DNA of 45,223 nt from Promethearchaeota archaeon (GTDB lineage Archaea; Asgardarchaeota; Lokiarchaeia; Sigyniarchaeales; SOKP01). The stretch covers positions 1-45,223 of the forward strand of contig JBHLNZ010000023.1 of NCBI GenBank assembly GCA_048941015.1, read 5' to 3'. Position 1 is the stretch's first letter; each line of letters opens with the position of its first letter. The notes under the pieces are model-generated. The model worked only from the letters and a program-made list of their open reading frames with translations. It did not search any database and had not been told where the DNA came from. The translations under genes were made by a program, and so were the position numbers. This document shows, one piece after another, positions 6,107 through 17,991 of this stretch.

Positions 6107-8668
6107 TTACTCTCCTTTTACAATTTTTTTACATAAATTTACCCCTAATCCTGTTTTTCTATTAAGATTATATATATTTTCTTTTTTTACCTGATTCGCA
6201 GTGTGATATCCTGCATTAAATAAAATTCGTGCCCGTACCCTTGCTACATTTACCAATCGTAGCACCAAATCAAACAGTTCTTCTTTAATTCCATAGTGAA
6301 TTCGAACCTTTAAAGTTTCACACATTTCTGCGATTTTAATCATCCTATCTTGAAGATCCATACCAGTTTCACTTAAATACATTGCAATAATACCAATAAA
6401 GGTAATTATTCTTTCTAAATTATCGCGTATTGTATATAGATCACCTGCCATTATATTATACCGCTCTATAATTGTTTCAATCGGTTCTTCGTCTGCCCAT
6501 TCCAGTATAGGTTGAAGAAGATTATAATTTCGTTCTCTTCCTTCCGCAATAAGGATGTCAAAGGCTTCCTTAACAATATCCTGAAATGAGTCCATTTCTA
6601 CATTCTCTAATTTCTGGCGAATTAATACGCCTGATACAGGATATAAATATAACCGTATAATAAGCTTTCCGAACTGGGAGCATTTAAGTGTCCTATCATC
6701 ATTTTTTAAGATTAATCCCTTTTCAAATAAATAATTAAGGATATATTGGTTCTTTACAGATTTCGGAATGATTGAATCAACATATTTCTGAAAAGAGATA
6801 TCAGGAATTTTGACAAGGTGAAGTAAAAAGAGAGTTATATGGTCACAAAAAACAAAACTAAACTCATCATTAGCATAATTATCAGAAATACCATTCTTAA
6901 ATCCACATGAGCAACGTATTCCGTTTTCAATGCTAAATTCACAGAAATAGACTCCAAAAGAAGTTTTTACATAACCTGCAATTATATTATTATTTAGCTG
7001 AGAAACTTTTACTTGGCTTTGGTTGCTTCTTAATTCCTTCACCTTTTTTAAGTCAGCATGCAACTTTAGTATATTAATAGGAGTAATTTCCTTAATGAGC
7101 AAAAACTGGTCAACGGGAATGTTCTGTCCCTTCAATTTATTTTGTATTATATACCAAAAATATGTTTTCCTGAAAAAATCCTTTAATTTCTCAATGGTAA
7201 TACGTTTATCTTCATATATTCGCAATAAGACTTGTTCTTTTAAGGTATTGATTTTATTTAATCCAGAGACAAGCTCATTATATTTTGGAGTGTAAAATTG
7301 TTCTTCGATACCTTCTTGAAAGTAATGATCTTCTACCCAATTTCTCTCCTCTACATCGCTAACTAGAATAATTCCATACCCAATTGAATCTAATCCAGGC
7401 CTTCCTGCTCGGCCTAAACATTGAAAAACCTCATTTGCCGAAAAAGGACGGAAAAATGAAAATCCATCCCCATTTTCAAAATAACCTTTAAAACATTTTA
7501 TATTGTGTCCAGAAGTAATAAACTTTTTAAAATCCCGTAAGATGACTACTCTAGCAGGGAGATTTATACCTGCACTGAGCGTCGTAGTACAACAAATTAC
7601 TTTTAGTAATCGTTTGCGAAATGAATCTTCCACTAATTTTCGCTCTTTTGGAAGCAAACCCGCATGATGAAAAGCAATCCCATGCTTAATTACTTTTTTA
7701 AGTTCATTGCTTCCTCCTTTAATCTTGTTAATACTTGCTTCCAACCTTTTGCATGTTTTCTTCTCTAAATCAGATAAAAAATTTTTGACTAAGTGTTTAA
7801 GATTTTGAGCTGTCTGTTGAGCGGATTTTCTTTTATTCAAAAATATTAAAACTTGTCCTTTTTTCTCCATGGTAGATCTTATAATCTTTTTTATAGTCGA
7901 ATTCTTATTTTGTGTTACCTCAATTTTATAATGAAGGGGTACAGGACGATCTTCCGATGTTATGAGGTATGTCTTATTACCTAATGAAGAAAGCCATTGA
8001 TTAAAGAATTCGGGATTAGCAATAGTAGCAGATAAACCTAAAATTTGAGGTTTATTTAAAAACTCATTAAGCCGAACAATTAGAGACTCCAATCGTGGAC
8101 CTCTATCCGACTCCCCTATGATATGGATCTCATCGATAATTAATGTTGAGATGTTAAAAATCCAATCTTTATCATAGAAATTTCTTAAGATAGAATCCAT
8201 TTTTTCATATGTTGTAATAATAATATCTGCTTTTTCCAATTTGGAGTCATCAACATCATAATCTCCTACTGAAAGTTCAACATTTATACCAAACCGTTCA
8301 TAACTATTTTTGAAATGAAGATATTTTTCGGTAGCAAGAGCTTTAAAGGGGACTAAATAGACACTCTTCCCAAAATTTTGAAACACATTATGAACAGCGC
8401 ATATTTCTCCAATAAGAGTCTTACCACTCCCAGAAGGGGCACAAACTAAAAAAGATTTTCGAAAAAAAAGACCATTTTTTATAGCTTCCTTTTGAATTTT
8501 ACGGAGTTTAAAGATTCTTTGCTCAAATAAAACTCGTTGTATACGTTCATCCAGGATATATTTAAATATCTTTTCGTCTTGAGTTGAATCTTCTTTCTCA
8601 ATAAACTTTGTTATGGTTATTCTCTTCTCACCTATTATCCTCTTTTGAATATAATAGCTTGCAATCAT
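6107..8668 (-). CDS. hel308: Hel308/Ski2-like SF2 helicase with inserted SWIM-type Zn finger
   Basis: APSGSGKT, TTYEKMDS, DEIH, GLSATIAN, AFHHAGL, TTTLSAGINLP, QCLGRAGRPGLD, ratchet/HhH C-terminus (RVRARILFNAG). Insert CSCG-x19-FCDH. Confidence 0.85.
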   Translation of the reverse strand: MIASYYIQKRIIGEKRITITKFIEKEDSTQDEKIFKYILDERIQRVLFEQRIFKLRKIQKEAIKNGLFFRKSFLVCAPSGSGKTLIGEICAVHNVFQNFGKSVYLVPFKALATEKYLHFKNSYERFGINVELSVGDYDVDDSKLEKADIIITTYEKMDSILRNFYDKDWIFNISTLIIDEIHIIGESDRGPRLESLIVRLNEFLNKPQILGLSATIANPEFFNQWLSSLGNKTYLITSEDRPVPLHYKIEVTQNKNSTIKKIIRSTMEKKGQVLIFLNKRKSAQQTAQNLKHLVKNFLSDLEKKTCKRLEASINKIKGGSNELKKVIKHGIAFHHAGLLPKERKLVEDSFRKRLLKVICCTTTLSAGINLPARVVILRDFKKFITSGHNIKCFKGYFENGDGFSFFRPFSANEVFQCLGRAGRPGLDSIGYGIILVSDVEERNWVEDHYFQEGIEEQFYTPKYNELVSGLNKINTLKEQVLLRIYEDKRITIEKLKDFFRKTYFWYIIQNKLKGQNIPVDQFLLIKEITPINILKLHADLKKVKELRSNQSQVKVSQLNNNIIAGYVKTSFGVYFCEFSIENGIRCSCGFKNGISDNYANDEFSFVFCDHITLFLLHLVKIPDISFQKYVDSIIPKSVKNQYILNYLFEKGLILKNDDRTLKCSQFGKLIIRLYLYPVSGVLIRQKLENVEMDSFQDIVKEAFDILIAEGRERNYNLLQPILEWADEEPIETIIERYNIMAGDLYTIRDNLERIITFIGIIAMYLSETGMDLQDRMIKIAEMCETLKVRIHYGIKEELFDLVLRLVNVARVRARILFNAGYHTANQVKKENIYNLNRKTGLGVNLCKKIVKGE

Positions 8669-8765
8669 TTAAAGAAAAAAGAGTCCTGAGAATTACATTA
8701 ATTTTTTGTTCTTCTCGTAATATTTTTTCTTTAAATATTTTTAAATATATTGCTCTCTGATTCCT

Positions 8766-9992
8766 ATGACAGGTACTAATGAACGCCAAATGGAAAAAAA
8801 ATATGATTTGAATAATACTCGTAACTTTATCAGTGAACATTTTACATCTGAAATTTCTTCAGAAAAGGTAAAAGAAACTTCTAAAACCAATAATATTGCC
8901 TATTTAGTTTCTAATATAATACAAGATATGGGTTATTATTTAATTCCTCAACAACATCGTAAACAATATCCTCTTGATTTACTTTCCTTTCGAATATTAG
9001 AAATTAATGAAAAAGTATCTGTTATTTTGTTAATTCCTATAATTATTGATACCAATCACTTAGATATATTTGTTTCTGAACAGACCATTAGATATGATAC
9101 CAAAGATCATACAAAACTTAATCCTTATGCACAGCAACTTGTTCGTGTTGCTGAAGTCTTATTTGAAGAATTAGTTATGGAACACCATTTTTTCCAAATA
9201 CTTAATAATTCATTAGATACGCCTATAACCATTGAAAAAACTATTGAACAAAAACCTCTTTATTTTCACTCAGATAATATGGAATACAAATTGAGAATAG
9301 ATCCAATTATAGTAAAGGAAAAGCCTCCCTTATTTTCAGAAAAAACGCTTTCCTTCGCTTATCAGCGTCATTCTAATCTTCATGTTATTGCGTTAAATCA
9401 AATTTCCAATTTATTAGAATTTTTGGAGCAGAAATACATCATTCTTGAAAGTTTGGAAAAAAAAAGTAATATAAAAAATTCTTATGAACCGTTAAAAGGG
9501 AGATATTCTCGTTACTTTCAATGGATGCAACTACCTTTTATTGGATATTTAGTTCTGTTTGGAATTATCTTATTATCTAACTTCCCTTCGCTCACCAATA
9601 TAATGATTAGTCTAGGTTATGCTGCTATGGGTGTATATATTTTCTCTTCAGGTTTTCTTTATTCCTTGATTTTTCGAGAAAAAATTAAAATAGCTAAAGA
9701 ATTTTTAACTCCCTTTCATAAAAAAATTCTTAATATCAGTGATGAAGAATTATTCCTAATAAGTGAAGGCTTAAATCCTGAATATCTAGAACAACTTGGA
9801 TATGAATGTTTTGGAAAAGAACATTCTTATAAAACATTAGATGAATTGGAACAAAAAAAAATTGAAAAAGAAATTAATAATAGACCCATTACTATCGAAA
9901 AAAAGGTGGATGAACTCTACGAGCCAAAAGAATCCACCCAAGCTCTTCATAAGAGTATAATTGAGAAATATAGCTCATTTTTGGATGATTAA
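8766..9992 (+). CDS. hypothetical membrane protein (2 TM helices)
   Basis: 408-aa ORF with two hydrophobic segments at about aa 255-303. Divergent from hel308. Confidence 0.75.
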   Translation: MTGTNERQMEKKYDLNNTRNFISEHFTSEISSEKVKETSKTNNIAYLVSNIIQDMGYYLIPQQHRKQYPLDLLSFRILEINEKVSVILLIPIIIDTNHLDIFVSEQTIRYDTKDHTKLNPYAQQLVRVAEVLFEELVMEHHFFQILNNSLDTPITIEKTIEQKPLYFHSDNMEYKLRIDPIIVKEKPPLFSEKTLSFAYQRHSNLHVIALNQISNLLEFLEQKYIILESLEKKSNIKNSYEPLKGRYSRYFQWMQLPFIGYLVLFGIILLSNFPSLTNIMISLGYAAMGVYIFSSGFLYSLIFREKIKIAKEFLTPFHKKILNISDEELFLISEGLNPEYLEQLGYECFGKEHSYKTLDELEQKKIEKEINNRPITIEKKVDELYEPKESTQALHKSIIEKYSSFLDD

Positions 9993-10039
9993 AATCTCTT
10001 TCGATTACCCTCTTAATTTTTTTTCTCATTGAAAAGGTA

Positions 10040-10154
10040 ACTCCTGCCACCAAGACCTAAAAAAAGGTCAAAATCGAAATAGGGGGAGGAGGACAAAATG
10101 AGTGTATGTAAAATACACTTCCAAAAGACAAAAATCCAGGGCGGTAGCAGGAGT
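10040..10154. ncRNA. putative structured RNA / cis-element (multi-stem)
   Basis: Terminal 12-bp stem ACTCCTGCCACC (10040-10051)/GGTAGCAGGAGT (10143-10154) encloses hairpins GACCT-A6-AGGTC (10054-10069) and AGTGTAT-GTAAA-ATACACT (10101-10119). GC-rich relative to its surroundings. Confidence 0.5.
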
Positions 10155-10286
10155 CATGGATTATGTTTTTTGTTTTTGTCTTACACTTAGATAGATATAA
10201 TACTTTAAAAACTTTATTCCTTAAGAAAGAGAAGGGGTATAAGATTTTTTTTCTTTAAATAGTTCTAACTCTAAACTAATCAAGTC

Positions 10287-11054
10287 ATGAGTGGTAACCT
10301 TAAGGCTGTATCTAAAGTCTTTTTTATAACTGGGATCATTCTTCTCTTTATTTCATTATTTATGGATTGGTATTTTTTTCAAGCTACTGATAGTAAAGGA
10401 AATATAGTTATTGTATGGAGTTATTATCTTTTTTATGGCTGGCAAACAACTCTTCCTTCTAATACATTTATTAATGAGTTATATCTTCCCGAAAACGTAT
10501 CTGTTCCTATAATAATTCCGATTTTAATGATTATCTCACTATTGATGGGAGTTTACGGAGTAATTGCTCATGATCTTGAGAAAAAAGTAGATTTTTCTGC
10601 TTTAAGAAAGTATGCGTATGCCAATTTAATAGTTTTATTGATGACTGGATTTTTTATTTTAATATTCCCTGCTTATTATCTTATTTCCAACAATCTCTAT
10701 TATCCCTTTATGAACTTCAATGATATAGATCTTGGTGTACATTTTGTATATCGTATGGGAATTGGCTATTTCATGCAAATAATTGCATTTATTCTAATCT
10801 TTCCCTTTATTATCTTCAATTTTCAAACAATTCGTACTTTTGAAAAGAAAAAACATTCTCCTCGAGCATATATAGCTCAGATACTCGAGCAAGTCAAAGA
10901 AACAATAGACTTGGATAGATTCATTACTGAAGAGAAATTAATCTTAGAAAGGTCCAAGAGTAAGATAGAGAAATCTCCCATTCAAGATACCATCAAAGAA
11001 ACTGAAATTGATCATATTTATCATAAATTTTTAGAATCGAGAAAGGTGATTTGA
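10287..11054 (+). CDS. hypothetical 4-TM membrane protein
   Basis: Four hydrophobic helices and a charged C-terminal tail. Its stop overlaps the next start (TTGATG). Confidence 0.8.
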   Translation: MSGNLKAVSKVFFITGIILLFISLFMDWYFFQATDSKGNIVIVWSYYLFYGWQTTLPSNTFINELYLPENVSVPIIIPILMIISLLMGVYGVIAHDLEKKVDFSALRKYAYANLIVLLMTGFFILIFPAYYLISNNLYYPFMNFNDIDLGVHFVYRMGIGYFMQIIAFILIFPFIIFNFQTIRTFEKKKHSPRAYIAQILEQVKETIDLDRFITEEKLILERSKSKIEKSPIQDTIKETEIDHIYHKFLESRKVI

Positions 11055-11923
11055 TGGAAAATCGTCAATTATTAGATGTGAAACTTAAAAAGTTAATTCA
11101 AGTCTGTAAGCAAACTCTTAATTATAGGAAATTAGCTGTTGTAGGTTTTATTCTTCAGAGTAATCTTATCGATGAGATAGGACTCAAATTAGCATTCCGA
11201 TTACGGAATAAAAGTGCTGGAGAGAAAATATATGAATATATGAAAGCCATTAACGATTTTTTTTGGCATAATTTACAGATTAGTATATTTCGGTCCGATC
11301 TTATTGAAAGCATGAAACGAGTGGAACTTATTTTCTTAGCAAAACGAGGTGATATTTCTATGGATTATATCAAAGAACTTTTTAAAATTTACTTTACCAT
11401 AAGAAATGTTCATATTCCTAATCTTCAAGAAGAAATCACCCTTAATGATTTCACTCAAGAATCACATTTTAATTATTTATCGTTCTTAGCAAAGAGAAAA
11501 CAATCAAAGAACAGTACTGATAAAATTAAACCTCTTTTACTTCACAAAATTTCTCAGAAAGAAGCATTATTACGCGATTCCTATGATGAACAGAACGATG
11601 AAAAAATATTTAGGGATTTATTAAAATTAAATGCTCTTAAAAAATCCATTAAAAGAAGTTCTCCAGGAAAAATTATAATTAACGAAAACTTAACAGATAA
11701 TTTAGTATATCGTGCTTCCCAACAGAATATTATTAAATTTGCTATATGGGGGGTTTTTATTGTTTTTCTTATGATTATAGGCCTCATTCTTTACGAAACA
11801 ATGCTCATTCCTTATCTTACACTGAAATTAAGTCCCGTTTTACTTTTGGGAATAATATCATGCATAATTACATTTTTAATTCATAAAAATTATTGTAAAA
11901 GGAGAAGCTATTCTAATGGTTGA
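11051..11923 (+). CDS. hypothetical protein with two C-terminal TM helices
   Basis: 290 aa, overlaps both neighbours (translational coupling). Confidence 0.8.
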   Translation: MMENRQLLDVKLKKLIQVCKQTLNYRKLAVVGFILQSNLIDEIGLKLAFRLRNKSAGEKIYEYMKAINDFFWHNLQISIFRSDLIESMKRVELIFLAKRGDISMDYIKELFKIYFTIRNVHIPNLQEEITLNDFTQESHFNYLSFLAKRKQSKNSTDKIKPLLLHKISQKEALLRDSYDEQNDEKIFRDLLKLNALKKSIKRSSPGKIIINENLTDNLVYRASQQNIIKFAIWGVFIVFLMIIGLILYETMLIPYLTLKLSPVLLLGIISCIITFLIHKNYCKRRSYSNG

Positions 11924-14900
11924 AATTGATAATGAATCTTTATATAATTCTTCTGCTTCATTAAAAACTAAGAAAAAGGTTCCTAATAATAGAAAACATA
12001 TTAATATCTGGGAAACCTACCCCTCCTATAAAGATATTAGCAAGACACGAGAAAGATTAAAACATACTTTTTTACTTATTCTTGGATTTGGTTATGTTTA
12101 TGCTCTTTTTATAATCACCTCTAATATTATATTCTCTCTTGGCTTGAGTGGCGTTATAATCATTATAGTTATTATGTTAATTCATGACCAATTTTTCTTC
12201 TTTTCACACTTTTTCTCAAAAGGTAATTTTCAACCTTTTGGGAAGTTTATCTTCTGGAAAACGATAGAGGATCCTTTTACAATATTTTATACTCATAGAA
12301 AAGATAATTTTACCGTTGCACTTCGCACCTTTAAAATTACAGTTATTCCTCAAAATATTCATGCAAATATGAGACAATTTATCCAATCACTTAATAGTTT
12401 ATTAATTCCATTTTCATTCCAGGTAATCCAAAAGCCACTTCTTAATGAAGATAAATTTTCCTTTAAAACGATACTGATATTCAATTTATATTATTCTATC
12501 TATGGAAAAATAACCTATTCGAAGCTTCAAGAGCTATTATTAAAATTAAAGAGTTATACTTCTGCATTAGATTCAGGATTAGCAGCTAATTTTCATCATT
12601 TTAAAATATCGAAACTTACTTCTTTAGAAATTATTGATTCCATTCGAGCTTCATTTATACCACAAAACATGTTGGATAAGACTCTTTCTGAAAATGTTCT
12701 CATCAAAAAAAGTCAAACTTATTTTTTAATAGGAAAAATTCTTCTCATGATAAGTATAATTTTTCTCTTAGACCTACTATTTTTCACAAGTTCTATTCCT
12801 ATTTTCGTTAGAATTGGAGTAACTGTTGGAGTCAGTATTTTAATTACAAAACTATTTGCAAGAGAACTTCTCTTTCACCTTTTTACTTCTAAATTTTTTG
12901 CAATGAAAGATATTGAGACTATCAATCCCTTTTCCAATATAGATTTTTATTATTCCTCTCAAACTCCTGACACCATTTTTTTTCATATTGAAGGAAATAT
13001 AACTGGTGGAATAAAAATGGTTAATGTTAAATATATTATCCCTCCTCCTTTTTTTTTCTCTAGTAAATTCTATCTCGGTCTGATTAAGGAAAAAATACCC
13101 TTTACATCCTCTTTTATAACGGCACCCATGAGTTATTACGAATTTGAAAAAGAAGGCTATGAATATTTACAGGAAAAAGAAAAGAAGATCCATCTTAAAA
13201 TGATTAAAACCGAAGCCGATGAAAATAATTGGTTATCTCAAAGATCGGGAGTATGGAAAACCATCATTACTTTTTCTACCTCCTGTGTTCAATTTAGTAC
13301 TAAACTTGAGATGAATCAACTAATTGACATTGAATTGGCACTCCAAACACAGATACAAAATTTAATAATTAATTTTAAAGGAAATTTTAATAATTTTATT
13401 CTTGAGCCACTACGATCTACTCATTTGATATCTGGATTCCAAGTAGAAGTATTAAAGAACAAATCGATTCGATTTGTGGGCTCTCATTTAAATTATATTC
13501 TCATGCAGGGTCGAACACTTACTAAACTAATCGATATAGTGGATGAATTTAAAAAAGGGATGGATACTCGTATTGCCGCGGAGTTTAACAGTCCCCTTCA
13601 ATTAGAAAGTTCTGTAACTATTGGGAATACCATTAATACCGAATTTTTAAAAGAAGAAATACCCGCGGGATTTAACTTACAACAACTTCATAGCTTACTA
13701 ATTATGAACGGAACAATTCAGAGCAGAGAGCATACTGCCATGAAACTGATTTTAGGACTTATTCAGGATAGCTTTCCTGTGCTGATTTTTGATTTTTACG
13801 GGGAATGGACAGGTATTATTAACTATTTTCAAAAAACAGAATATGCAAAAAATTTTCTCTATTTTAAATTAGGAAAAACTCTTAATTTACATCCCTTGAG
13901 TTCAGAAATACTCTATGATAAAGATAATATTAAATATCTGGACTATATGATTGATGCTTATGGATTATGTTTTAAGAAAGATGAAAAAACGATGGAGATG
14001 TTTCGTAACACTATTATTCGTAATGCTGATACCGCTTTGTCTACATTAAAATTAGATCTTACCACTAAACGGGAATGGGAGAAAAATCCTGTCACTGATG
14101 AATTGATTGGATTCTTACAAGGATTTTCAGAGCAAGATTTGATTTTCTTCAGACCGATAAAAAACGAGCAAGAAGAGATAATAAAACCTTATGAGTTTAT
14201 TACCAGTGATAAATCTATTATCATTGACTTATCCCAATCACCCGATCTTGTTAAGAAATGCTTTTTTATGATGGTTATTTTATCTAAATGTATTCATTAT
14301 TTAAATACCGAAGGGGAATACGTTTCTAAATTTTTGTATATTCCACATATTGATATGATCTTCGATAATTTTCATCTTGATAAGCATATAAAGTATGGGA
14401 AAATCGATAAATTCTTTCAACCATTAACTCGCCGAGATTTTGGACTCATTTGCTCTTGTGCCCAAAATCATTATTTGCATCCTAATCTTTTCAATAGTTA
14501 TTTTAATAACTACATTTCCTTTAAAACAATTGATAATCGAGATATTGCTCAGCTTAAAAACATCTTAAATTTAGAAGAAATCCATGGTCAAGGAATCTAT
14601 AGTAAAACTAGAAACGAGAGCTATCAGATTAAATATTTAATGAGTATGCAACCTGAGGAAGCATTAATCAAGCGATCAGATCTTCATCAACCATTCCCAG
14701 TTAAAATTGATATTTCAGAAGTGAATCTACTTCCTAAAATGGAATGGGAAGATATTATAAAATATATGAGAACTCAAGGATACGATTTAGAACATACTGA
14801 GCGTGCTATACTCCAGCAGAGAAAAAAAACCATTCTTGAAAAAGATTTTGGAGATTATGTGGTCTTAATTGATCCAATCATTAAATTTCTAAGAAACATT

Positions 14901-15638
14901 GCCATTGTTGATAAAATTGGTAATTTATATTTAACCAAAATAAAAGAAGAGCTAAAAAAATCTTTACACCCAGTCCTTTCGACCATTACCAATGATAAAC
15001 AACGAATAAAAGAGATGAGATCTAAGATATTGGAGATATTATTAACTCAAGAATACTTGGTAGAAAATCATCCTAAACGAGCGAGTGGTAGTGAATCAAT
15101 TCGAACTTCCTATTCAGTTGGAATTCATTTCCAGAAAGCATTAGATGATTATTTCAATACCCAAAGAGAAATTCAAACCCTTCCTGAAATAGAGGTTGTT
15201 GAATCTGATTCTTATTCAAAAGATATCCTGGCTAATTTACCTTTTAATGAAGAAGAACAAGCACAGTTAACAGAAGCGTTAGCAAAAGAAATAGCAGATT
15301 CACTTTATTGGGAATTATTTATGCTTCATAAACATCTAGCACGGAACAATACCAAAAAAGTAGCGGAAATTGCTACTAACTTTGTCAAACGCTTTTTTCA
15401 TCGTCTCTTTCACCGTTATTATAATGTGAATTATGCAGTTGTAGATCGTGATATCGAAAATTTCATAAGCTTTATAACGCGTATTGATAGATTTCCCTTT
15501 ACTAAAAAAGAACTTAATGTTTATTTAAAGAAGTATATGCGAGTTTCTGAGAATGAAACAAAAGAGTTTTATGCAACATTGTATCAAGAATTAAGTAGTT
15601 TTTTCAAAAGACTTCAAAACTTTATTAATCAAGCTTAA
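11916..15638 (+). CDS. membrane-anchored HerA/VirB4-like P-loop protein with degenerate Walker motifs
   Basis: Two TM pairs, each followed by a similar alpha/beta domain. Then HSLLIMNGTIQSREH (Walker A position), VLIFDFYGEW, KSIIIDLS, KFLYIPHID (Walker B position), GLICSCAQ, NNYISFK, MQPEEALI, in HerA/VirB4 motif order. Confidence 0.65.
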   Translation: MVEIDNESLYNSSASLKTKKKVPNNRKHINIWETYPSYKDISKTRERLKHTFLLILGFGYVYALFIITSNIIFSLGLSGVIIIIVIMLIHDQFFFFSHFFSKGNFQPFGKFIFWKTIEDPFTIFYTHRKDNFTVALRTFKITVIPQNIHANMRQFIQSLNSLLIPFSFQVIQKPLLNEDKFSFKTILIFNLYYSIYGKITYSKLQELLLKLKSYTSALDSGLAANFHHFKISKLTSLEIIDSIRASFIPQNMLDKTLSENVLIKKSQTYFLIGKILLMISIIFLLDLLFFTSSIPIFVRIGVTVGVSILITKLFARELLFHLFTSKFFAMKDIETINPFSNIDFYYSSQTPDTIFFHIEGNITGGIKMVNVKYIIPPPFFFSSKFYLGLIKEKIPFTSSFITAPMSYYEFEKEGYEYLQEKEKKIHLKMIKTEADENNWLSQRSGVWKTIITFSTSCVQFSTKLEMNQLIDIELALQTQIQNLIINFKGNFNNFILEPLRSTHLISGFQVEVLKNKSIRFVGSHLNYILMQGRTLTKLIDIVDEFKKGMDTRIAAEFNSPLQLESSVTIGNTINTEFLKEEIPAGFNLQQLHSLLIMNGTIQSREHTAMKLILGLIQDSFPVLIFDFYGEWTGIINYFQKTEYAKNFLYFKLGKTLNLHPLSSEILYDKDNIKYLDYMIDAYGLCFKKDEKTMEMFRNTIIRNADTALSTLKLDLTTKREWEKNPVTDELIGFLQGFSEQDLIFFRPIKNEQEEIIKPYEFITSDKSIIIDLSQSPDLVKKCFFMMVILSKCIHYLNTEGEYVSKFLYIPHIDMIFDNFHLDKHIKYGKIDKFFQPLTRRDFGLICSCAQNHYLHPNLFNSYFNNYISFKTIDNRDIAQLKNILNLEEIHGQGIYSKTRNESYQIKYLMSMQPEEALIKRSDLHQPFPVKIDISEVNLLPKMEWEDIIKYMRTQGYDLEHTERAILQQRKKTILEKDFGDYVVLIDPIIKFLRNIAIVDKIGNLYLTKIKEELKKSLHPVLSTITNDKQRIKEMRSKILEILLTQEYLVENHPKRASGSESIRTSYSVGIHFQKALDDYFNTQREIQTLPEIEVVESDSYSKDILANLPFNEEEQAQLTEALAKEIADSLYWELFMLHKHLARNNTKKVAEIATNFVKRFFHRLFHRYYNVNYAVVDRDIENFISFITRIDRFPFTKKELNVYLKKYMRVSENETKEFYATLYQELSSFFKRLQNFINQA

Positions 15639-15649
15639 AGGAGAATATT

Positions 15650-16006
15650 ATGAATTCAGCATCAAAGGATGAAAAATTATATGGCCTACTAGAAAAAATA
15701 CTATTTAATACAATTGAATTTGATAGTTTAAAAGCTACTATACATGAAGTTAGTTTGGGTAAAAAGCCCACCAAAATATTAAGAGAACAGATCATTCAAG
15801 AAAAAATACGTATCTTAGAGGATTTAGTGGATTTTTTCTATTTTTATGTTCAATATTCAACTCAATATAATAAACACCTATCATCAGACATCTCTTTTGA
15901 AGAAAAAGTAACTCTTGTGCAAAAAATAAATGAACGGGAAGAATTACTTGAAATAATTGCAAAAAAATTAAACAAACTGACGAATAACACCTTTGATAAT
16001 CTATGA
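15650..16006 (+). CDS. small helical hypothetical protein
   Basis: 118 aa, AAGGAG ribosome-binding site upstream, last gene of the operon. Confidence 0.7.
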   Translation: MNSASKDEKLYGLLEKILFNTIEFDSLKATIHEVSLGKKPTKILREQIIQEKIRILEDLVDFFYFYVQYSTQYNKHLSSDISFEEKVTLVQKINEREELLEIIAKKLNKLTNNTFDNL

Positions 16007-16249
16007 AGCCTATAAAGAATTGTTTAATATTGTCAAATACTTATTCTTTATAAGATGGAAGATATTTTCTTATCAAGAAATCCCAATAAAGTGGATCATC
16101 AAACCCGTCGCCACTATAATACATTAGAAAGTCTTGCTCTTCCATTGTTTCATATATAGTTTCAGTTTCGATTTCTAACATTTATCTCATTTTAAGTGAT
16201 TAATATAACTATAGTCAATTTGATCTGGATCTATTTAAAGAAAAATATT

Positions 16250-16278
16250 AACGAAAAGTGTATCAACGAAAAGTATAT
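16250..16278. repeat. 14-bp tandem direct repeat AACGAAAAGT(G/A)TAT
   Basis: Copies at 16250-16263 and 16265-16278, intergenic. Confidence 0.5.
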
Positions 16279-16292
16279 GATGATCTAATATA

Positions 16293-16553
16293 CTACGTGA
16301 TCTTCTTCCTTACTTGTTTATCCTTTACCATATGCCATATTGCTGGAAATATACATAACATAAAAATAATAAATGCAATTACAAAGATTACAACCCTCAC
16401 AATATTTAATAATACAGGATTGGTGGATCCTCTATAAAATATTCCTAAGGTTATTAATGAAATGACAATAGGAATCCCGATACAAAAAAGACACCCCGCT
16501 AACTCCTTTATTTTCGACCCTTTTTCTTGTGGAGGTTTATTAATTTCATTCAT
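16293..16553 (-). CDS. small 2-TM membrane protein
   Basis: 86 aa with two clear hydrophobic helices. Confidence 0.7.
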   Translation of the reverse strand: MNEINKPPQEKGSKIKELAGCLFCIGIPIVISLITLGIFYRGSTNPVLLNIVRVVIFVIAFIIFMLCIFPAIWHMVKDKQVRKKIT

Positions 16554-16812
16554 TAGGTATTATTATAAAAAAAAATGACTTTATAAGCCTTACGTTAAAA
16601 AAGTAAGTTTTATAGAATTCTAAATTAAAATCTGACTGATAATCAATTTGCGTATTTGAGGTTCTTTCAAGAGGTTTATCACAATACAGACATTTCTTAT
16701 TATAGACTTAATAAAGGAGAAGTATCAGTTTGATATCAAAACAAAATGTAAATTTTTCTCTTTAAATATAATTGTTGTATAATAAGAGAAAATAGTCCCT
16801 ATATAACAAATT

Positions 16813-17991
16813 ATGATTTCCCAAGAAAATGTTCCTTCTCAAGAACGAGTATATCCCTTTTTTATTGAACAATATTTAGATAGCAGTTTTGAACTTCAAC
16901 GGGTAACCCCCATCAGAAAATTTACTCCTCGTTTATCAATAGCTAAACCTGAAGATGCATATATTTTAGCAGATATCTGCAAAGAAGTCTATGAGAATTC
17001 ATATCCTTATCGTGAAATGGAAGATCCTACTTATGTACGAAAGATGATTCAGAGTCCTGAACATCATTTTGTCATTTTCAAAACCAAAGAAGGAGAACCA
17101 GCTGGGTGTTTTCGATGTGCCTTAGACTTTAAGCAAAAAAAAGGATATATGGGTGGTTTTATGGTTCGACCTAAATTCCAAGGGGAGTTAGATGTCGTAA
17201 AAGCTATCATGTTATCTTATATCTGGATGTGGACAACGTTTAAAAATAAGATATTAGTATGGTGGTGTGAAAATCGGACTGCCCAAACCGCTTCCCAATA
17301 TATAACAGCTGTATGCGGGATTCATACCGTTGCATTTTTCCCTAATAAGGACATATTTTATAATCAAATTGAGTCGGATGTTATGGGTATGATCTTTGTA
17401 AAAAGAGCATTAAGAGAGATGAGAAAAAAGAAAAGACCCAAATTTATTAAATCCGCATTAAATTGCTTTCTTTATACTAATAATCTCTATAATTTAGGTC
17501 GATTTAAAATAGAAAAGCCTAATTATTTTTTAGATAATTCAAAGATTAAACAATTTCAAAAGAGGTTAAAGAAAAAGGTATTGATTGATGAATATGGTTA
17601 TAAATATGTTACCTTTACAATTGAGGGAACTGATTCATACTTGAGTTTCATTCATACTACTCATCTTAAGAATTTTGAAAAAGCTAAATATAAAGTATCT
17701 TGTATAGAAGAATTTTATTTATTTGTGAAGCAAATAAAAAAAAGTATGAAAGAATTCAATATTCGGTATTGTGAATTATTTTTATCTGCCTATAAACCGG
17801 AATATCAACAAATAGTTTATGATGAAGGTTTTCGAGCCAGAGGATATATCCCGTGTTGGTATTATGATAAAGAATTCGATGAGTTTGAGGATGCCATAGT
17901 ATTTAATTATTATAAAGGAAACCTAGAACATCTTAATCTCCTTTCTGAAGGTCAGAAGTTAGTTAAAACCCTCAATTCTGTCTATCAATGA
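16813..17991 (+). CDS. tandem GNAT-fold acyltransferase-like protein
   Basis: AKPEDA..LA....EVYENSYPY, GGFMVRPKFQG (acyl-CoA binding motif A), second degenerate GNAT half ending GFRARGYIP. Confidence 0.7.
   Translation: MISQENVPSQERVYPFFIEQYLDSSFELQRVTPIRKFTPRLSIAKPEDAYILADICKEVYENSYPYREMEDPTYVRKMIQSPEHHFVIFKTKEGEPAGCFRCALDFKQKKGYMGGFMVRPKFQGELDVVKAIMLSYIWMWTTFKNKILVWWCENRTAQTASQYITAVCGIHTVAFFPNKDIFYNQIESDVMGMIFVKRALREMRKKKRPKFIKSALNCFLYTNNLYNLGRFKIEKPNYFLDNSKIKQFQKRLKKKVLIDEYGYKYVTFTIEGTDSYLSFIHTTHLKNFEKAKYKVSCIEEFYLFVKQIKKSMKEFNIRYCELFLSAYKPEYQQIVYDEGFRARGYIPCWYYDKEFDEFEDAIVFNYYKGNLEHLNLLSEGQKLVKTLNSVYQ

Follow-up and report, generated by a model that had tools for sequence, protein, structure and literature searches.

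The 45,223 nucleotide (nt) contig JBHLNZ010000023.1 of a Promethearchaeota archaeon, the whole of which is referred to here as the window, carries five co-oriented genes (g1 to g5) that form a tight, conserved chromosomal operon of Loki-type Asgard archaea. The largest of them, g4, is according to structural modelling a homologue of VirB4 over the full extent of its N- and C-terminal domains, and the residues present at its nucleotide site do not allow that site to function canonically. Our current working hypothesis, which we favour tentatively and rate a little below an even chance, is that the operon would encode a pilus-less membrane scaffold of type IV secretion system (T4SS)/Ced descent, built around the dead VirB4 on the cytoplasmic face of the membrane, handling DNA and powered in trans. 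In the literature searched we found no description of a VirB4 with a dead site that is conserved throughout a lineage, has membrane anchors fused to it and is encoded in a private five-gene operon, nor any paper linking VirB4 to Asgard archaea or Lokiarchaeia. To our knowledge, no motor other than VirB4 is universal in type IV secretion and conjugation, and we know of nothing reported on DNA exchange between Asgard cells. Asgard archaea are the closest prokaryotic relatives of eukaryotes, and their gene flow and recombination bear on models of eukaryogenesis. The g4 family also offers a case study of a hexameric motor kept as a scaffold after the loss of catalysis.

Fold and nucleotide site of g4

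The g4 protein was modelled as two overlapping pieces, residues 1-620 and 500-1090, each with an alignment of 101 sequences. With the first model (pLDDT 86, pTM 0.83), Foldseek retrieved only the TrwK/VirB4 chains of R388 (E 8e-9 to 1e-6), the next hit standing at 8e-3. With the second (pLDDT 81), it retrieved HerA (4d2i, E 1e-10), the DndH C-terminal domain and the VirB4 C-terminal domain (4ag5), for which the target-normalised TM-score was 0.64. A first-pass annotation of this DNA had proposed a HerA/VirB4-type fold (RecA-like, of the FtsK/HerA kind) for the C-terminal half, and the Foldseek comparison of the model confirms it. The accompanying description of the protein as 'HerA/VirB4-like' holds as to fold, but is too broad in so far as it implies a generic HerA, because the matches cover both the N- and the C-terminal domains of VirB4. 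This relationship was seen in the models and not in sequence searches: a profile built from 34 g4 homologues had no match among PDB sequences, and g4 had no hit at E <= 1 in Pfam or NCBIfam, including CagE_TrbE_VirB (PF03135), AAA_10 and DUF87 (PF01935). The 117 near-full-length homologues carry no precomputed Pfam domain, and those that are named all come from Asgard metagenome-assembled genomes.

The two repeats of a transmembrane (TM) hairpin followed by an alpha/beta domain that the first-pass annotation had noticed in g4 proved highly significant, residues 40-262 aligning with residues 262-520 over 205 columns (hhalign probability 98.8 %, E 1e-16). Modules 1 and 2 jointly span the VirB4 N-terminal domain, and a TM hairpin precedes each half. 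Because the two modules together cover that domain, the second hairpin is best regarded as an insertion within it. The first occupies the place of VirB3 in VirB3-VirB4 fusions and, by analogy, may correspond to it. Beyond the RecA-like domain the model contains a strongly conserved segment of three helices followed by two strands, which resembles a winged helix.

When g4 is compared with VirB4/TrwK (PDB 7o42, 8rtb, 8rtd, 4ag5), several differences are apparent. Both Walker motifs of g4 are destroyed, no match at the level of sequence connects it to Pfam CagE_TrbE_VirB or to any PDB chain, a second TM hairpin lies inside a visibly duplicated N-terminal domain, and there are approximately 300 extra C-terminal residues, among them the winged-helix-like segment. 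Moreover, no VirB6, VirB2, VirD4 or relaxase is recognizable in the g4 locus, where g1-g3 and g5 match no known family, and g4 is a chromosomal core gene outside any mobile element. HerA (4d2i, 7f6d) and the DndH C-terminal domain (7es4) differ from g4 in that the region preceding the g4 core is VirB4-like and in that g4 has no match to DUF87, whereas TrwB/VirD4 (1e9s, 1gki) are active nucleoside triphosphatases (NTPases) without a VirB4-type N-terminal domain, and g4 has no match to their all-alpha domain.

Both Walker motifs had been called degenerate in the window, and they are so in all 101 aligned homologues, the family consensus being TNGxxxxRE for Walker A and KxhhhhPxhD for Walker B. 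In a profile-profile alignment with an active ATPase encoded in paralogous clusters (described below), the Walker A motif of g4 pairs with GLTGVGKT such that R604 takes the position of the Lys and E605 that of the Ser/Thr, and in Walker B P810 falls at the Asp position and H811 at the catalytic Glu. Since many residues of the old pocket are conserved (N598, G599, R604, E605, D626, D771, K805, P810 and D813), some nucleotide binding by g4 is possible. It could further be proposed that g4 is a non-canonical NTPase or a nucleotide sensor, in which Arg604 and conserved acidic residues replace the classical motifs. The strong conservation of the residues lining the old site would agree with this, as would the retention of an hhhhD[DE] Walker B in many single-unit and split relatives (see below) despite a P-loop of the GGxxxxR type. 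However, the g4 P-loop has neither Lys nor Ser/Thr, the four residues inside it are not conserved, a Pro stands at the Walker B Asp position in the family to which the window belongs, and P-loop ATPases in which the Walker A Lys has been mutated to Arg are generally inactive. We therefore consider this proposal improbable.

The operon and its products

Hydropathy agrees with the proposal that four of the five products are membrane-anchored, and the open reading frames (ORFs), like all the motifs quoted, are located exactly as the first-pass annotation had claimed. As to the translational coupling also claimed there, g2 and g3 overlap by 4 nt (or by 1 nt, should translation of g3 begin at the ATG at 11054) and g3 and g4 by 8 nt, and g5 follows g4 after 11 nt with a GGAG ribosome-binding site ahead of its ATG. 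The spacer between g1 and g2 contains a GC-rich stretch (approximately 10040-10190) in a genome whose GC content is 29 %, and an Rfam scan of positions 8600-16900 gave no match. In most relatives g1 and g2 abut, and in some they are separated by 0.4-1.8 kb. Domain annotation confirms that the operon is divergent from a gene for a Hel308-like helicase and near genes for a Hef-like helicase and a protein with a CoiA nuclease domain, the CoiA-like gene being 6 kb away behind unrelated genes.

Comparison of 78 Asgard loci from species-representative genomes showed that the five genes co-occur outside the window. The order of helicase, on the opposite strand, followed by g1-g2-g3-g4-g5 recurs in approximately 35-50 of the 78 loci and in most of those with enough flanking sequence. 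The individual genes were detected in 51 (g1), 53 (g2), 56 (g3), approximately 35-50 (g5) and approximately 45 (helicase) loci, with the helicase divergently upstream of g1 in 38. Median spacings, from 47-55 related loci, are 4 nt (g1 to g2), -4 (g2 to g3), 3 (g3 to g4) and -1 (g4 to g5). Across loci the helicase is 63-80 % identical, as against 33-45 % for g4. A further conserved neighbour, downstream of the operon, is a GNAT-like gene (392 amino acids (aa); window 16813-17991), which in many relatives has a DUF998 membrane domain as a C-terminal fusion (~640 aa).

The distribution of g4 was assessed in 400 genomes of the phylum with the g4 C-terminal half as query (E <= 1e-10), and 98 of the 134 genomes (73 %) of the GTDB family of the window were found to contain the gene. 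In the genome of the window, which is 95 % complete, g4 is present in a single copy, the GC content is flat over the operon region and neither an integrase nor a relaxase is found within approximately 8 kb, in keeping with the chromosomal nature attributed to the cluster at the outset. These data bear on whether the operon might instead be what is left of a conjugative element that integrated and is now decaying, or an antiviral defence system of HerA type. VirB4 is a hallmark of conjugative elements, the HerA and DndH folds that were both among the top structural hits occur in defence systems, and the paralogous clusters described below are patchy and include giant and tetratricopeptide repeat (TPR) proteins. 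Against this, the ORFs are intact and conserved throughout the family in fixed synteny with housekeeping genes, in addition to the single copy, the flat GC content and the lack of a nearby integrase or relaxase. Pfam, NCBIfam, PADLOC and PHROGs gave no match for any of g1 to g5, the PADLOC result extending to the Sir2-HerA, DUF4297-HerA and DndFGH systems. The operon contains no effector domain, and a search of IMG/VR returned no relative. For the locus in the window this explanation is largely refuted, and we give it very little credence.

Among the other products, g3 is well conserved (mean column identity 53 % in the alignment) and g1 is variable in length. Nearly all g1 orthologues are of approximately 560-830 aa with an N-terminal HHH_5 domain, a helix-hairpin-helix (HhH) domain, whereas g1 of the window is a short form without HHH_5 that aligns only from orthologue residue ~220-296 onward and has no space upstream for the missing N-terminal part. 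From this alignment g1 appears to be truncated in the genome of the window. A separate gene for the N-terminal part was not found in that genome, where the only matches were generic HhH ones; a 639-aa protein on contig C56 was considered as a replacement HhH partner and rejected, as it shares nothing with g1 orthologues except the HhH domain. Profiles of g2 and g3 had no match among PDB sequences, ESM Atlas look-ups for g3 and g1 yielded a poor model or none and no known relative, and in an all-against-all hhalign comparison of g1, g2, g3, g5 and the parts of g4 the sole similarity was the repeat within g4. By hydropathy, g1 and g3 have one TM hairpin each, g2 has four TM segments, g4 has two hairpins and g5 has none. 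The hairpin loops are all of 3-8 residues, and the flanking charges are predicted to put every soluble domain in the cytoplasm. Coordinates are collected in the table below.

Table. Position of the operon, its flanking features and the parts of its products within the window (residue numbers refer to the protein concerned)
Feature	Position	Strand	Remarks
Hel308-like superfamily 2 (SF2) helicase	6107-8668	-	853 aa; Pfam DEAD, Helicase_C, Helicase_dom4_arc
Divergent intergenic region, helicase to g1	8669-8765		97 nt, AT-rich; TTTAAATA-type boxes upstream of g1; putative promoter
g1	8766-9992	+	408 aa; by hydropathy, predicted cytoplasmic alpha/beta domain, TM hairpin ~255-305, acidic C-terminal tail
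g1-g2 spacer	9993-10286		294 nt; contains GC-rich element
g2	10287-11054	+	255 aa; by hydropathy, 4 predicted TM segments, two aromatic-rich outer loops, 76-aa charged cytoplasmic tail
g3	11051-11923	+	290 aa; conserved, predicted cytoplasmic helical domain (~220 aa), then C-terminal TM hairpin
g4	11916-15638	+	1240 aa
g4 TM hairpin 1	12066-12191	+	residues 51-92; helices 43-68 and 71-92, 3-residue loop
g4 N-terminal module 1	12213-12701	+	residues 100-262
g4 TM hairpin 2	12717-12857	+	residues 268-314; separates the halves of the N-terminal domain
g4 N-terminal module 2	12897-13475	+	residues 328-520; repeat of module 1, structural match
g4 RecA-like FtsK/HerA/VirB4-type C-terminal domain	13548-14750	+	residues 545-945
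g4 degenerate Walker A, NGTIQSRE	13707-13730	+	residues 598-605
g4 degenerate Walker B, FLYIPHID	14331-14354	+	residues 806-813 (LYIPHID 807-813)
g4 winged-helix-like domain	14928-15176	+	residues ~1005-1087; conserved wing around 'ENHPxRASGSE'
g4 putatively helical C-terminal tail	15177-15635	+	poorly conserved
g5	15650-16006	+	118 aa; small protein, predicted to be soluble and helical

Distant relatives, paralogous clusters and candidate motors

Outside its own family, the g4 C-terminal-half query detected a much diverged g4 of equal length (22-24 % identity) in 7 of 14 genomes of the sister family, a split form in a few other families, in which a unit of 280-325 aa is separate from a protein of 510-550 aa that corresponds to the C-terminal domain, and nothing in most of the remaining families of the phylum. 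A wider spread over all Asgard phyla, as suggested by NCBI labels, was not upheld, as GTDB assigns the 1250-aa form chiefly to one family and its diverged sister family. When a profile of the g4 C-terminal domain was compared with 1.8 billion representative proteins, 1384 were retrieved at E <= 1e-3, the named members being all Asgard, and these comprise double units of ~1250 aa, single units of ~770-920 aa and split forms. Nearly all have a P-loop of the G[GS]xxxxR type without Lys, the canonical GxxGxGK[ST] being confined to matches near E 1e-20, and the P-loop is degenerate in the diverged, single-unit and split forms alike. Its loss is therefore old and clade-wide. The split forms end in a segment resembling the winged-helix-like region of g4.

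Genes for DNA repair and recombination recur beside these relatives. A gene for RadA adjoins a split or single-unit dead-VirB4 gene at L093 (1368-8045), and FEN1 is encoded downstream of a split form at L095 (4450-12310) and beside two convergent dead-VirB4 copies of 814 and 815 aa at L097 (1784-11371). Hel308-like helicases are encoded beside the split forms at L094 (upstream, same strand) and L095 (divergent). In the sister family, genes for a Hef-like and a Hel308-like helicase adjoin the g4-like gene at L091, and at L092 a g1-like protein (hhalign E 5e-6) is encoded divergently to the g4-like gene, alongside a weak ERCC4 match. In several distant loci, small proteins with 1-3 TM segments are encoded directly upstream of the g4 relative. 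Because such repair and recombination genes recur in differing arrangements, a DNA-related role is suggested, on circumstantial grounds.

The same neighbourhoods could be read in another way, namely that the VirB4-derived scaffold serves a purpose other than DNA handling, for instance to process proteins or lipids, to build a surface structure or to remodel the membrane, and that the repair genes are there through inherited synteny. It is true that the operon in the window has no recognizable DNA-binding domain besides the putative winged helix, that VirB4 also drives pilus biogenesis in bacterial T4SS (textbook knowledge), that GNAT-like and ThiF genes are likewise conserved neighbours, making the whole block syntenic, and that the single-unit relatives at L096 and L098 lie in unrelated contexts. 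Yet most g1 orthologues have HHH_5, and Hel308, Hef, RadA and FEN1 adjoin relatives in different Asgard lineages and arrangements; moreover, no candidate for a pilin or secreted substrate and no extracellular domains are evident. A non-DNA role thus seems to us unlikely.

Several genomes of the family contain extra copies of g4, which nest among the core copies in a single FastTree run that was used for nesting only. At approximately ten such paralogous loci the gene after a dead g4 encodes a soluble protein (630-720 aa) that has GLTGxGK[ST] intact, together with hhhhDE, and weakly matches DUF87, and at five of these a protein of 1466-1745 aa comes next, in one case with a TFIIB repeat and helix-turn-helix (HTH) motifs. 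Since the paralogous clusters place the two together, a dead g4 can be paired with a live ATPase of the same superfamily. Examples of these clusters are L064:7911-18621, L068:7899-18838, L057:2688-13758 and L002:10001-20403, in which the large protein is of 1376-1745 aa; that of L068 is the one with the TFIIB repeat and HTH motifs, and that of L002 may contain an intein, as suggested by a LAGLIDADG match. Zn-ribbon and TPR proteins are encoded upstream in some of the clusters.

With the paralogue-cluster ATPase as query, no homologue was found in the genome of the window. That genome does encode a canonical HerA with intact Walker A, in an operon of Rad50-Mre11-HerA-NurA type elsewhere, and a second HerA-like gene, and five ORFs other than g4 match DUF87 (PF01935), which g4 does not. 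A candidate for a membrane motor acting in trans, offered as a lead only, is a 603-aa ATPase of HerA/FtsK type on contig C101 (L101:4337-6148), which has three predicted N-terminal TM segments, the Walker A motif GSTGTGKS and a weak TrwB_AAD_bind match and is encoded among housekeeping genes (thermosome, Obg-like GTPase). A second Hel308/Ski2-like ORF (891 aa) is present on contig C46. The Hel308-like helicase of the window matches PADLOC models of HamB, the Hachiman helicase, at up to E 3e-44, which we read as family homology because the helicase is so highly conserved across genomes.

A tentative model and its alternatives

If the analogy with VirB4 and with CedB and CedD holds, g4 would form a ring under the membrane, held there by the four TM helices of each chain. 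With a dead nucleotide site, such a ring would serve passively, as a dock or gate and not as a motor. The products of g1 to g3 and g5 would join it in a physical complex, giving a platform without a pilus that would derive from a machine of conjugation type. It may handle DNA at the membrane, most likely in exchange or import that feeds recombinational repair, with contacts to DNA made by the HhH domain of g1, in most genomes, and by the winged helix of g4. A separate motor would supply the energy in trans, and the best candidate for it is the divergently encoded Hel308-type helicase; the Walker-intact HerA-like ATPase next to the dead g4 could play that part in the paralogous clusters.

A close known parallel is the crenarchaeal Ced system of Sulfolobales. 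Its proteins CedB and CedD are HerA/VirB4-like and bear TM segments, and the N-terminal domain of each superposes on another part of that of VirB4; described as ATPases that DNA import requires, they are archaeal VirB4-like proteins with fused TM segments that act in the import of chromosomal DNA (PMC11868833). By description, they resemble g4 in being archaeal and chromosomal and in having, besides TM segments, an N-terminal domain that is VirB4-like and a C-terminal one that is HerA/VirB4-like, and the Ced system and the g4 operon share a link to DNA repair. They differ from g4 in that g4 has both N-terminal parts, each with its TM hairpin, in one chain, whereas in other Asgard lineages the single unit is a separate protein, and in that the site of g4 is dead. 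The Ced system also has a CedA/VirB6-like channel, a CedA1 pilus and Ups pili, none of which is recognizable in the g4 operon. A looser, functional analogy is offered by bacterial competence (ComEA HhH receptor, ComEC channel, ComFA helicase), which, like the model above, combines a membrane-anchored HhH binder of DNA, membrane proteins and an SF2 helicase motor, but there is no homologous component, and the HhH domain, extracytoplasmic in ComEA, is predicted to face the cytoplasm in g1.

A number of observations weigh against the scaffold hypothesis. Over the genome of the window there was no match to PF03135, for which a Caulobacter control was positive, or to PF04610 (VirB6/TrbL), and no pilin or relaxase was found; the sole signal of TrwB/VirD4 type was a weak match in an unlinked HerA-like gene. 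Hardly any of the complex is predicted to be extracellular, the exception being two g2 loops of 42 and 21 aa, which sets it apart from T4SS and Ced. The g1 protein of the window appears to lack the HhH domain, so that contact with DNA by g1 would not be universal, and the assignment of the winged helix in g4 is provisional, coming from the pattern of secondary structure in the model. The conserved Arg604, D626, D771 and D813 could still bind nucleotide. Furthermore, the adjacency of Hel308 within one GTDB family may be inherited synteny, at least in part, as the downstream GNAT-like gene is conserved too, and outside that family a helicase is adjacent at L091, L094 and L095 only, not at L092, L093, L096 or L098.

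The topology also bears on the kind of apparatus that may be involved. Besides the two g2 loops nothing is predicted outside the membrane and there is no pilin-like ORF in the operon, which makes the 'cell-contact' complex suggested by the first-pass annotation unlikely; this near absence of extracellular mass, like that of any pilin, argues against a classical conjugation-like apparatus. At the other extreme, the complex could be a static, DNA-binding tether whose task, in segregation or in organizing repair, would be to keep the chromosome or some extrachromosomal element at the membrane, with no DNA crossing. A dead ATP site, soluble domains that are all cytoplasmic, the want of an evident channel-forming polytopic subunit beyond the four-TM g2, and the HhH and winged-helix elements would all suit a tether. 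Nevertheless, should g4 be a hexamer, each protomer set would bring up to 12 TM helices (g1 2, g2 4, g3 2, g4 4), which exceeds what an anchor calls for, the paralogous clusters add an active ATPase of translocase type, and the relatives VirB4 and CedB/CedD act in translocation (PMC11868833). We consider a purely static role slightly more doubtful than a non-DNA one. The scaffold hypothesis can also be sharpened into a pilus-less DNA translocation machine of a new class, in which the VirB4 ring would be the passive gate, a protein of the Hel308 family (or, in the paralogous clusters, the separate HerA-like ATPase) the motor and chromosomal DNA exchange or uptake for recombination the outcome; in this specific form it appears to us no likelier than the non-DNA role.

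The five proteins, the helicase partner and the active sister ATPase provide concrete targets for further study. The sister family includes complete, single-contig genomes that encode diverged orthologues, so that cultures, cryo-electron tomography and biochemistry could be brought to bear on the question. The genomes concerned, those of L091 and L092, are of 6,035,313 and 4,324,194 bases, respectively.

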